NCBI GenBank assembly: GCA_016929445.1
Contig: JAFGIU010000011.1
Location: 43,068-107,067 of the forward strand
Direction of reading: 5' to 3'
Origin: Candidatus Omnitrophota bacterium
GTDB taxonomy: Bacteria > Omnitrophota > Gorgyraeia > JAFGIU01
Length of the DNA stretch: 64,000 bases
In this document: in pieces, positions 53,117-54,991 of the stretch
Position numbering within the stretch: position 1 is the stretch's first letter
Layout: every line of letters begins with the position of its first letter
Position numbers and translations under genes: made by a program
Notes under the pieces: model-generated
What the model was told of the DNA's origin: nothing
Database searches by the model: none
What the model saw: only the letters and a program-made list of their open reading frames with translations

Positions 53117-53124
53117 ACTAGCTA

Positions 53125-53276
53125 AAACCCAGAGCAGGTTCCTGAGGACCGGCTATTTGATCTTTACACCAGGGACGGTTCTTAGCTGCCCCTTGTGACT
53201 CAACAAGTTATGCGAGAACCGTCCCTATTGGGAAGTACGGGGCCGTTTTGGACCCCTTCAGAACCTCTCTGGGTTT
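53125..53276. repeat. Nested long-range inverted repeats forming a potential ~150-nt structured element between tpsB and the downstream lipoprotein gene
   Basis: Outer arms AAACCCAGAGCAGGTTC (53125-53141) and GAACCTCTCTGGGTTT (53261-53276), 16/17 complementary. Inner arms AGGGACGGTTCT (53171-53182) and AGAACCGTCCCT (53215-53226), 12/12 complementary. Confidence 0.35.
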
Positions 53277-53306
53277 AATTTGTGTTGTCAAAAATCGGAG
53301 GCAGTT

Positions 53307-53897
53307 ATGACTAGATACATACTGGGCATCACAGGAGTGCTGCTGACGCTTGTTGGCTGCGGCACCGGAAAGCCGGATGCCTCTGCAGCGATATCTATTA
53401 ACGGAATCGAGTTCACTGCCTCGGAATTTGAGCAGGCCTATGAGACATCTTCCTACGCTCAATCCAAATTGCCGGACTCAAGGGCGGAGTTTCTCGACAC
53501 CTTTGTCAAGAGCAAGCTGCTTTTGAGCGCGGCCCTCCAGCAAGGACTGGACAAGGATCCGGACTTTCTTGAGGATGTGGAATCCTTTTGGAATCAGTCC
53601 CTTTTGAAACTTGCACTGGACCAACAGATGAAGCAAGTATCTGCGGGCCTTGTGGTCTCAGACGCCGAAATTCAAGGCTTCTATGAAGCTCGAAAGGCTG
53701 AGTATTTTGCGGGCGTCACTCTGGAGCAATCCCAGGAGGCAATTAAGACGGTGCTTTTGAGGGAAAAACGCCAGCAAGCCCTGGAGTCTTGGATCAATTC
53801 CTTGGAAAGAAGGGCACAGATAGAAATCGATTACGGATTGCTGAAGATTCCCGCAGGGTCCATGTTGGAGGAGCCGAGCAATGAAACCCAGAATTAA
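53307..53897 (+). CDS. Lipoprotein with SurA-N/PrsA-like chaperone domain (no PPIase domain)
   Basis: Lipobox LVGCG in MTRYILGITGVLLTLVGCGTG. Helical N-domain resembling the SurA N-terminal chaperone module (FLDTFVKSKLLLSAALQQGLDKDPDFLEDVESFWNQSLLKLALD). Lower GC than tpsAB. Confidence 0.45.
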   Translation: MTRYILGITGVLLTLVGCGTGKPDASAAISINGIEFTASEFEQAYETSSYAQSKLPDSRAEFLDTFVKSKLLLSAALQQGLDKDPDFLEDVESFWNQSLLKLALDQQMKQVSAGLVVSDAEIQGFYEARKAEYFAGVTLEQSQEAIKTVLLREKRQQALESWINSLERRAQIEIDYGLLKIPAGSMLEEPSNETQN

Positions 53898-54459
53898 ACG
53901 CAGAAACTACTTTATTGATAGGAGCTTCCAGGCTAAATTTGCGATTAAGTTTTGTGTCGTAGTCCTGCTTTCCTCGATCCTTGCCGGGGCTGCGATTGTG
54001 GCCCTTTCCGGCAATTCAACCACCGTGGCCATTGAGAATACCAAGGTTGTGGTCAAAGGGACCACGGATTTTCTTCTGCCCTTGATGATACAAACTTTGA
54101 TCATTGTGACGATTTTTGCCTCAGTCTCTGTGATTGCCCTGAGCCTTTTGGTGTCGCATAAGATCTCTGGGCCGCTGTTTAGCCTGAGGCGAACCGTGGA
54201 TTCCATCAAGAACGGGAATCTGAACGCACAGTTTCACATTAGACGGGATGATCAGATTCAGGCACTGGCAGATTCCTTAAACGGCATGGCGGAAACTCTC
54301 AGCGATCGATGGATGCTTGCCAAGGAAAAAGTGATTACCTTAAATACCTTGGTGGAGGATCCCAATCCAGACAAACAGAGGATTCAAGCCGTCTTGAATG
54401 AATTGGACGAGTCCCTCAACTATTTCCAACTCCAGGAAGGCAATGCAAATCATTCGTAA
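53881..54459 (+). CDS. Membrane protein with two TM helices and a HAMP domain only (no output domain)
   Basis: TM1 FAIKFCVVVLLSSILAGAAIVAL; TM2 LLPLMIQTLIIVTIFASVSVIALSLLV. HAMP region KISGPLFSLRRTVDSIKNGNLNAQFHIRRDDQIQALADSLNGMAETL. Overlaps both neighbouring genes by 17 nt. Confidence 0.55.
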   Translation: MKPRIKRRNYFIDRSFQAKFAIKFCVVVLLSSILAGAAIVALSGNSTTVAIENTKVVVKGTTDFLLPLMIQTLIIVTIFASVSVIALSLLVSHKISGPLFSLRRTVDSIKNGNLNAQFHIRRDDQIQALADSLNGMAETLSDRWMLAKEKVITLNTLVEDPNPDKQRIQAVLNELDESLNYFQLQEGNANHS

Positions 54460-54991
54460 GAGCCTGCTCGCTCTTAGCGTAATAGCCTTTCTTTGTGCCG
54501 ATGTGTGCGCTCAGGATTTGGAAACGCGTTACTTTGATGTAACCGTGCACGAAGACGTTGACATTGTCCAGCTCTATTCACAAATTCATGTCAATGAATT
54601 CGAACACCTCGATATCTTGGTTGGGGGGGATCTCAGCGACCCCACTCAAGGTCTTAAGGAATGCCTGGATGCGCTTTACTTGGAAGTCTCGGATATCCTG
54701 GACATCCACCTGAGGACTGTGCGGTATAAAATCGAAATCTATTCCTCCAAGCTGGATTTGGCCGAGGTATCTGTGCGAAATTACGGTTACCATAAGCACG
54801 GTTCGGCCTACTACTCGTTTGAGCGGAATACACTCTATTTTTGTGCCGAGGAGCTGCGTACGGGAATTCTGGGCCACGAGATGGCCCATGCGATCGTGTG
54901 CAGTTATTTTGTGGTTCCGCCCCCGGAAAAGGCCCAGGAAATCCTCTGTGGCTATGTGGAATTCCAACTCAACAAAAAGCTTGCATTGTGA
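54443..54991 (+). CDS. Small secreted protein with a C-terminal HExxH motif (putative minimal zinc-metalloprotease-like)
   Basis: RBS AGGAAGG before ATG 54443. Signal peptide MQIIRKSLLALSVIAFLCADVCAQD. Motif ILGHEMAHAIV. No further family assignment is possible from sequence alone. Confidence 0.4.
   Translation: MQIIRKSLLALSVIAFLCADVCAQDLETRYFDVTVHEDVDIVQLYSQIHVNEFEHLDILVGGDLSDPTQGLKECLDALYLEVSDILDIHLRTVRYKIEIYSSKLDLAEVSVRNYGYHKHGSAYYSFERNTLYFCAEELRTGILGHEMAHAIVCSYFVVPPPEKAQEILCGYVEFQLNKKLAL

Follow-up and report, generated by a model that had tools for sequence, protein, structure and literature searches.

A trio of small overlapping genes, called here G1, G2 and G3, lies directly downstream of a two-partner secretion (TPS) gene pair, tpsA and tpsB, in a 64,000-nucleotide stretch of contig JAFGIU010000011.1 from a Candidatus Omnitrophota bacterium (this whole stretch is referred to below as the window). 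Judged from sequence and model comparisons, the trio is an undescribed accessory gene set conserved across the phylum Omnitrophota, made up of a predicted chaperone of known type, a HAMP protein without an output domain and a putative peptidase of a new gluzincin family. It is best described as a module travelling with surface-polymer export loci, rather than as a proven TpsA-specific maturation factor. In the literature searched we found no paper linking Omnitrophota with TPS, ShlB, SurA or HAMP.

The initial annotation had described three genes overlapping by 17 nucleotides each. The list of open reading frames (ORFs) contains them at that position, all on the same strand, and, with starts set by ribosome-binding site (RBS) sequences and family alignments, the overlap is exactly 17 nucleotides at both the G1/G2 and the G2/G3 junctions (all coordinates are collected in Table 1). 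The sequence GGAGG at 53297-53301 is the RBS of G1. The protein features were recovered as well: a lipobox and a weak SurA_N_3 match in G1, a HAMP domain alone in G2, and HEMAH behind a signal peptide in G3; the fold assignments were upheld and sharpened by profile comparison for G1 and by structure comparison for G3. In sequence, G3 is 100% identical to JW937_01485 from a Candidatus Omnitrophica metagenome-assembled genome (MAG).

The upstream genes are truly a TPS pair, as had been claimed. TpsA residues 1-436 match the TPS domain PF05860 (1.6e-14, 54.9 bits against a cutoff of 33.5), and TpsB gives matches to POTRA_2 (1.3e-20), ShlB (7e-32) and Omp85 (6e-18); the locus thus combines a TPS-domain TpsA with a POTRA/ShlB-FhaC-type barrel TpsB, as expected of type Vb secretion. 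The whole 4530-aa TpsA yields zero Pfam matches at 1e-4. Since the TPS domain is found only with the N-terminal part, an automated scan of the whole protein would miss the identity of TpsA. In the ORF list, tpsB begins 62 nucleotides before tpsA ends (51524-51585); a start at one of the in-frame Met codons that follow shortly after (MMKMAHRR...) would reduce this overlap. On its other side the trio is followed by an RRM gene and then a DEAD-box helicase gene.

Relatives were gathered by means of two G3 peptide motifs, keeping one genome per species, which gave 80 loci; most are labelled Omnitrophota, about 20 were deposited as uncultured Planctomycetia/Planctomycetales MAGs and two as "bacterium". 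G1, G2 and G3 are contiguous and on one strand in 68 of the 70 loci with enough upstream sequence. The G2/G3 junction is a 1- or 4-nucleotide overlap in 40 of these 68, and the gap is at most 10 nucleotides in 85%. In two loci, L083 and L077, the whole trio is tandemly duplicated (Table 1).

TPS genes near these trios were called with hidden Markov models (HMMs) for TpsB, the TPS domain, the TpsA body and the TpsA C-terminus, and truncated upstream ORFs were called TpsA from their similarity to TpsA bodies or C-termini. Many contigs break inside tpsA, and 17 loci are uninformative in this respect. A TPS gene lies at most 1.5 kb upstream of the trio in 50 of the 67 informative loci (75%); it lies farther upstream, behind insertions, in two others and downstream in one, and none is in view in 14. 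Both orders, tpsB-tpsA and tpsA-tpsB, occur, and the trio always comes last. The first gene downstream of G3 belongs to 53 unrelated families in 69 loci, which leaves the adjacency of TPS genes and trio as the only conserved linkage. TPS-linked loci span the whole of the G3 tree, a rough neighbour-joining tree, over which the TPS-less ones are scattered singly; this argues for repeated separation of the trio from TPS. In an independent sample of 80 metagenome loci taken through TpsB, all three loci of the canonical type with a visible 3' end carry the trio, and none of the remaining 77, among which are other TpsB clades and gut bacteria, does. The co-occurrence with TPS loci that the initial annotation proposed to look for in relatives is thus largely borne out (the 50 loci, the three others nearby and the reverse sample), the 14 loci without a TPS gene being the exceptions. 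In L002/L003 and L060 an IS200-type (Y1_Tnp) gene stands between tpsA and the trio; the tpsA beside such an insertion is giant, 6601 aa as called.

The TpsAs linked to trios vary in length from about 700 aa to over 6000 aa and have a C-terminal region in common (...YYEIL..R..SFEP..P..FYAYHPLTPTDxSAFDxIxLDxGAYEFIExNIxLKK...PYFG), found in the last ~70 codons of L001, L004, L012, L037 and about 40 other loci, in which Pfam has no match. It is a candidate recognition or cleavage element for the trio. A reading of the genes behind tpsA as a toxin/immunity set like those of contact-dependent inhibition was discarded, the TpsA C-terminus and the trio being conserved and not polymorphic. The TPS pair of the window belongs elsewhere: its TpsB shares 24-30% identity with the TpsBs usually preceding the trio and 51% with its nearest relatives, those of L085 and L086, loci that carry no trio, and its TpsA ends without the canonical motif, in a C-terminus resembling those of L085, L086 and L088. 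In the window, too, a TPS pair adjoins the trio, though one of another lineage. Two explanations offer themselves: a general compatibility of the trio with TPS systems, or replacement of the original neighbour by another TPS pair at this locus.

The neighbours of the TPS-less trios include genes for phosphofructokinase, carbamoyl-phosphate synthase, an AMP-binding enzyme, NfeD, a methyl-accepting chemotaxis protein (MCP) and a polysaccharide epimerase. More distant G3 relatives (E ~1e-28 to 1e-34) again belong to G1-G2-G3 trios, as confirmed by HMMs, and on all four long contigs this sister-clade trio sits inside a Wzy-type exopolysaccharide (EPS) cluster, in the order Wzy_C, priming glycosyltransferase (TIGR03025), trio, small gene, EpsL-like barrel, Wza, Wzc. 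The small gene encodes 204-231 aa and is FecR/LipL45-like in L172. Of the two tandem trios in L083, the first groups with the polysaccharide-linked clade and adjoins a polysaccharide gene, and the second groups with the TPS-linked clade, so that two paralogous trio lineages coexist in one genome. The occurrence of the trio at loci unrelated to any TPS system, named in advance as an observation that would speak against the proposed connection, was thus encountered in part, at the 14 loci with unrelated genes and in the EPS sister clade.

G1 is a protein of 196 aa with the lipobox L-V-G-C, the cysteine being Cys18; most members of its family have the lipobox Cys. A profile built from 33 members matches the N-terminal chaperone domain of H. 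pylori HP0175 (5ez1, 1.2e-11) and C. jejuni PEB4/Cbf2 (3rfw, 6e-8), and weakly the C-terminal helix of other SurA-like proteins. SurA_N_3 is matched by 31 of the 33 members; the window G1 taken alone stays below the cutoff (1.6e-4, 22 bits against 27.2). A parvulin (PpiC) peptidyl-prolyl isomerase (PPIase) domain was not recovered in G1, where only a Rotamase_2 fragment at residues 117-147 reaches E 0.029, and no more than three of the 33 members give even a weak PPIase match. The Rotamase_2 domain is retained in distant homologues (L169, L173), among them some G1s of the more distant trios. These data point to a predicted membrane-tethered holdase lipoprotein of the SurA/PEB4 type that is devoid of a PPIase domain. 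The N-terminal chaperone domain and the C-terminal helix are common to G1 and to SurA, PEB4(Cbf2), HP0175, PrsA and PpiD, but in the Omnitrophota clade G1, a lipoprotein of about 180 aa, no longer has the PPIase domain. The window G1 also matches, with its N-terminal part only, the EpsD family (TIGR02925; 1.8e-7, 31 bits against an equivalog cutoff of 108.9). EpsD-type genes too are found in polysaccharide loci, but G1 is far under the cutoff of that family, as are the EPS-linked G1 homologues, and no link between EpsD-type PPIases and HAMP or HExxH partners was found in the literature.

G2 carries a HAMP domain (PF00672, 5e-9, 36.8 bits against a cutoff of 25) at residues 90-141 (nt 54148-54303), directly after its second transmembrane segment (TM2). 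The protein consists, in order, of a cytoplasmic KRRxYFIDxxFQxxF motif, TM1, a periplasmic beta-hairpin at about residues 44-63 (nt 54010-54069), TM2, the HAMP domain and a C-terminal helical hairpin. An AlphaFold2 model (pLDDT 84) has an N-terminal helix running into TM1, the hairpin with strands 47-52 and 55-60 between two long helices, TM2 with HAMP AS1, the connector, AS2 and a C-terminal helix. Nothing of G2 other than this hairpin, about 14 residues long, is periplasmic. In two family alignments this hairpin (STTVAIENTxVVVKxTxDFILP) is the best-conserved segment of G2, nearly invariant; the N-terminal motif RRxYFIDxxFQxxF is also among the best-conserved parts, and the C-terminus is variable. 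Scans with Pfam and NCBIfam revealed no kinase, MCP, GGDEF/EAL or phosphatase output domain in the window G2. About 200 relatives, of ~189 aa (the best 120 of them 176-200 aa), are likewise without an output domain. The initial annotation had called a HAMP protein without output unusual, and this stands, with the addition that these relatives exist and that there is a precedent in Af1503, an archaeal receptor that ends in HAMP and has no enzymatic output. Af1503 HAMP structures are among the matches of the G2 search. Both proteins have two transmembrane segments and a cytoplasmic part that is essentially HAMP; the extracytoplasmic sensor segment of Af1503 is larger, and Af1503 is not known to have a protease or chaperone linked to it, and G2 adds the conserved N-terminal motif and the C-terminal helical hairpin.

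In G3 a signal peptide (about residues 1-23) is followed by HEMAH at residues 145-149 (nt 54875-54889) and by Glu166 (nt 54938-54940). His145, Glu146 and Glu166 are invariant, the distant EPS clade included; His149 is invariant in one alignment (A9) and at least 90% conserved in another (A1), and Glu173 is replaced by Asp in the EPS clade. From its position, Glu166 would be the third zinc ligand. The protein has the catalytic fold of a zincin, and Foldseek gave weak matches to collagenase and minigluzincins, all with E values of 6e-3 or worse. G3 has no Pfam match below E 0.1 and no NCBIfam model, and its relatives number 767 at E<=1e-3 among 1.84 billion representatives. It is a predicted zinc peptidase representing a new family of small, Sec-exported, gluzincin-like proteins. 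When G3 is set against the catalytic domains of M30, M1 and M9 and against minimal gluzincins, no sequence family matches it; compared with minimal gluzincins, its Glu stands 16 residues past the second His, it has an extra conserved motif, LDALYLEVSDILDIH, and it is devoid of TPR or other accessory domains. Among the longer relatives of G3 there are no natural G2-G3 or G1-G3 fusions; the chimeric P0268 carries a GspE-like N-terminus, and the rest are extended by N-terminal anchors or by tails of low complexity. G3-type genes without an adjacent G2 occur in three loci (Table 1), in unrelated contexts (SecDF/helicase, hydrogenase). No G1-like gene accompanies those of L047 and L174, and L021 has a weak G1-like ORF ~1.9 kb upstream.

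A structured spacer, put at 150 nucleotides in the initial annotation, separates tpsB from the trio. Folding confirms the structure (minimum free energy -72 kcal/mol, z -3.4, none of 200 shuffles being as stable), and the length is 190 nucleotides. Nested inverted repeats (53125-53134/53267-53276 and 53162-53182/53215-53235) span 53125-53276. On the + strand it contains no T-run, no clear -10 box and no convincing terminator or promoter consensus, and its hairpin is predicted to be terminator-like. No Rfam family reaches its gathering score in this region; the only match below E 1, to sR32 (E 0.2, 16.6 bits against 40), falls inside tpsB on the minus strand and was rejected. A search of all six frames with the C-terminal HMM, filters off, returned nothing that would mark the spacer as left over from a canonical tpsA 3' end. 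The element and its stems are not repeated elsewhere in the window.

The equivalent spacers of 40 related loci are similarly structured (median z -3.3; 72% below -2). A classic terminator, that is a GC hairpin plus T-run, precedes the trio in 33 of them, a TA[TAG]AAT box is present 30-90 nucleotides before G1 in 35, and the two follow one another in that order in 29. Across the family, the trio is therefore usually its own transcription unit directly behind a TPS terminator. The stem GGGACGGTTCT/AGAACCGTCCC of the window hairpin (53170-53182/53215-53227) also forms part of terminator-like hairpins in six other loci (Table 1), at unrelated positions in several Omnitrophota genomes; conservation of a terminator, or a hairpin that is small and mobile, could account for this. 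Other TPS-to-G1 spacers have the stem ACAGGAAGGC..GCCTTCCTGT in common.

Table 1. Features of the trio and its surroundings in the window, and related features in other loci (coordinates are those of the window or of the locus named)
Feature	Where	Coordinates	Strand	GC	Description
tpsA	window	37993..51585	+	55.7%	4530-aa exoprotein; presumed client of the trio
tpsB	window	51524..53116	+	52.5%	Omp85-type transporter
spacer	window	53117..53306	+		190 nt, structured, nested inverted repeats
G1	window	53307..53897	+	50.8%	predicted lipoprotein of the SurA/PEB4/HP0175 chaperone type, without parvulin PPIase domain
G2	window	53881..54459	+	46.8%	N-in membrane protein, two TM + HAMP, without output domain
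G3	window	54443..54991	+	48.6%	predicted Sec-exported minimal gluzincin, ~160 residues
RRM gene	window			50.3%	downstream of the trio
DEAD-box helicase gene	window			51.5%	downstream of the RRM gene
Duplicated trio	L083	7017-10495			whole trio in tandem
Duplicated trio	L077	366-3505			whole trio in tandem
IS200-type gene	L002/L003	5938-6795			Y1_Tnp, between tpsA and trio
IS200-type gene	L060	7851-8744			Y1_Tnp, between tpsA and trio
Sister-clade trio	L167	8601-10744
Sister-clade trio	L170	8802-10663
Sister-clade trio	L172	8807-10609
Sister-clade trio	L173	8503-10699
Solo G3-type gene	L021	7067-7669			without adjacent G2
Solo G3-type gene	L047	3796-4467			without adjacent G2
Solo G3-type gene	L174	3221-3931			without adjacent G2
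Stem GGGACGGTTCT/AGAACCGTCCC	L004	6725-6754 and 10158-10205
Stem GGGACGGTTCT/AGAACCGTCCC	L044	9558-9597
Stem GGGACGGTTCT/AGAACCGTCCC	L046	8541-8570
Stem GGGACGGTTCT/AGAACCGTCCC	L063	12709-12751
Stem GGGACGGTTCT/AGAACCGTCCC	L117	6847-6874
Stem GGGACGGTTCT/AGAACCGTCCC	L122	8968-9022

Two other regions of the window deserve mention. About 33 kb upstream of tpsA, 62-5302 (+) encodes a 1746-aa secreted subtilase (Peptidase_S8 + CARDB + PKD); SphB1, the maturation protease of FHA, is likewise a subtilisin. Between 57426 and 61040, a small ORF containing GPAPNSGDGIPDGSG repeats precedes the genes for a 569-aa protein, which gives weak, sub-cutoff Pfam matches only (bactofilin and DUF7305), and for a DcaP-like outer-membrane protein. 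This may possibly be another surface-structure cluster.

What the trio does can be approached through its composition and its neighbours. We tentatively favour, at somewhat less than even confidence, a hold-and-clip module that would act in the periplasm on exported surface polymers, in this case TpsA, and in which the HAMP protein would gate the protease. Once exported by Sec, the repeat-rich and still unfolded TpsA would stay bound to G1 at the inner membrane until taken over by TpsB. G3 would cut TpsA, the most plausible site being a C-terminal portion that does not leave the periplasm, and in this way mature or release it or else remove stalled molecules. The G2 hairpin would dock or gate G3, with HAMP coupling the gating to the cytoplasmic or membrane state. 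The fold and site assignments, the integrity of the trio and its linkage to TPS genes speak for this reading. Such a logic would resemble that of LapD/LapG and the processing of FhaB by DegP and CtpA. Indeed, the TPS adhesin CdrA is cleaved by the periplasmic protease LapG under the control of the HAMP-containing LapD (PMC5422565; PMC5231407), DegP is a membrane-associated holding chaperone for FHA (PMC5422565), and the periplasmic prodomain of FhaB is processed by DegP and CtpA (PMC8263021). The initial annotation had suggested an accessory maturation, folding or processing module for TpsA itself, comparable to SphB1 for FHA. This is supported in part, by the co-occurrence with TPS loci, but a TpsA-specific role is unproven and the trio has its own promoter in most loci.

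Several observations weigh against the hold-and-clip proposal as applied to TpsA. The loci were picked through G3 motifs, and the sample is thereby biased toward those that contain the trio. No TPS gene is in view in 14 of the 67, and the sister-clade trio sits in exopolysaccharide clusters that show none. The terminator (33/40) or -10 box (35/40) found between the TPS genes and the trio means that they do not form one operon in those loci. In the window itself, the TpsA lacks the C-terminal motif and the closest TPS relatives have no trio. G2 has neither a ligand-binding nor an output domain, and the solo G3 genes of L021, L047 and L174 indicate that the protease can exist outside the trio. 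The main rival, which part of this evidence would suit but which we think somewhat unlikely, is a generic envelope biogenesis and quality-control module serving the export machines of the outer membrane, or further exported proteins, at surface-polymer loci. Here G2 would anchor the G1 holdase and the G3 protease at the inner membrane, candidate clients would be the TpsB barrel, EpsL-like barrels or Wza, and the roles would be akin to those of SurA or PpiD plus BepA, without action on TpsA itself. The position of the EPS-clade trio between the priming glycosyltransferase and the EpsL-like barrel/Wza/Wzc on four of four long contigs speaks for it, as do the presence in L083 of one trio per clade, with the EPS-type copy adjoining a polysaccharide gene, the genes for exosortase EpsH and EpsI just downstream in L004, the 14 Omnitrophota loci without TPS neighbours, the trio's own promoter, and the TPS pair of a different lineage beside the window trio. 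There is also a precedent in BepA, a periplasmic zinc protease that matures a barrel protein and degrades its stalled copies (PMC8423444). But TPS is the sole conserved neighbour within Omnitrophota, in 75% of the loci and over the whole tree, the two clades look like paralogues each specialised for its context, and a housekeeping chaperone would hardly be expected to track one type of locus. Nor has G3 the TPR domain or the M48 signature of BepA.

The conservation of HAMP and the invariant cytoplasmic motif RRxYFIDxxFQxxF could alternatively suggest a transmembrane signalling device, in which G2 would report the status of the envelope, of adhesion or of secretion to an unlinked cytoplasmic partner, with G3 as a regulated protease whose substrate would be a signalling protein and the lipoprotein G1 as co-sensor, comparable to NlpE-Cpx or to anti-sigma proteolysis. 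The FecR/LipL45-like gene that follows G3 in an EPS-type locus, and the PilZ protein and extra G2-like gene found nearby in L023 and L024, would fit. We nevertheless consider this improbable: kinase, cyclase, MCP and DNA-binding domains are absent from the ~200 G2 relatives, no conserved regulator gene is linked, and it is the periplasmic hairpin, not the C-terminus, that is best conserved in G2. Finally, the initial annotation had considered the trio as an independently acquired AT-richer islet that adjoins tpsB by chance. The trio (~49% GC) does hold the lowest 1-kb GC of the window, 48-49%, and the window TPS pair comes from a lineage otherwise unseen with the trio. However, the contrast was overstated, tpsAB having been put at ~60% GC (measured values in Table 1), and the drop, real as it is, is small and inside the gene-to-gene variance. 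Relative to 44 window ORFs, used as rough gene calls (mean 54.5%, sd 3.2), the three genes have GC z-scores of -1.3 to -1.9 and GC3 (third codon position) z-scores of about -1, and the downstream RRM and DEAD-box genes are just as low. Moreover, in the 40 related loci the GC of the trio is below that of the adjacent tpsA in 97% (median -4.7 points), but its GC3 is below in only 25%. A lower GC without a lower GC3 indicates that the drop reflects amino-acid composition and not foreign origin, the small trio proteins being rich in K/E/I/L/F and the beta-helix of TpsA in G/A/S/T/D/V. No repeats or integrase were seen, the spacer repeats being local only; no tRNA was seen at the borders of the trio, though no tRNA scan was run; and the TPS adjacency recurs in 50 of 67 informative loci. 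The islet, rejected on the window z-scores and on the family-wide pattern of low GC without low GC3, is scarcely credible, and the trio appears to have been inherited across the phylum rather than newly acquired.

The hold-and-clip proposal can be carried a step further. The trio could be a new kind of inside-out proteolytic switch, in which the hairpin of the HAMP-only G2 sequesters or releases the mini-gluzincin and, together with G1, decides whether the giant TPS protein is retained or released; we regard this as unlikely. That the paralogous clade would act in the same way on polysaccharide-associated surface proteins, and that such switches would control attachment to prey or hosts in Omnitrophota, is likewise a long shot. 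Omnitrophota are thought to be host-dependent or predatory nanobacteria, a lifestyle inferred mainly from their giant surface proteins, and the trio points to candidate regulators of their attachment. Two-partner secretion is usually described as needing just two genes. Throughout this phylum, however, genes for a predicted chaperone, a predicted protease and a membrane relay lie in physical linkage with tps genes, and they would offer a genetically tractable set with which to follow how giant repeat proteins survive in the periplasm and when they are released. The trio also defines an unnamed family of predicted zinc peptidases, for which neither Pfam nor NCBIfam has a model, as well as a large family of HAMP proteins lacking an output domain, and it connects TPS and Wzy-type polysaccharide loci through a common accessory module.

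Among known systems, LapD/LapG offers one near parallel: a periplasmic protease and a membrane protein of the order TM-periplasmic segment-TM-HAMP are encoded by genes linked to a giant adhesin, which is released by cleavage of its periplasmic tail. But LapG is a calcium-dependent cysteine protease, and G3, with its zincin fold and HExxH, has the predicted fold of a zinc gluzincin and is not transglutaminase-like. LapD has a folded periplasmic domain (LapD_MoxY_N) and GGDEF-EAL, where G2 has its 14-residue hairpin and gave no LapD_MoxY_N-type, GGDEF or EAL match, and the chaperone G1 is extra in the trio. G3 has neither the S8 domain nor the barrel of the subtilisin autotransporter SphB1, and both the M48 signature and the TPR domain of BepA are absent from it. 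As G3 is no cysteine or serine protease and G2 is without LapD or GGDEF-EAL domains, the trio stands outside the LapD/LapG and DegP/CtpA families. According to a review of TPS systems, maturation-protease genes do not appear to belong to TPS operons (PMC5422565), and DegP, CtpA, SphB1 and LapG are all encoded away from the TPS genes (PMC5422565). The handling of FhaB offers the other parallel, that of a TpsA which needs a membrane-associated holding chaperone and stepwise C-terminal proteolysis in the periplasm. There, the enzymes involved (DegP, CtpA, SphB1) are serine proteases encoded away from fhaBC, whereas in Omnitrophota a predicted chaperone and a predicted metalloprotease are encoded beside the tps genes.

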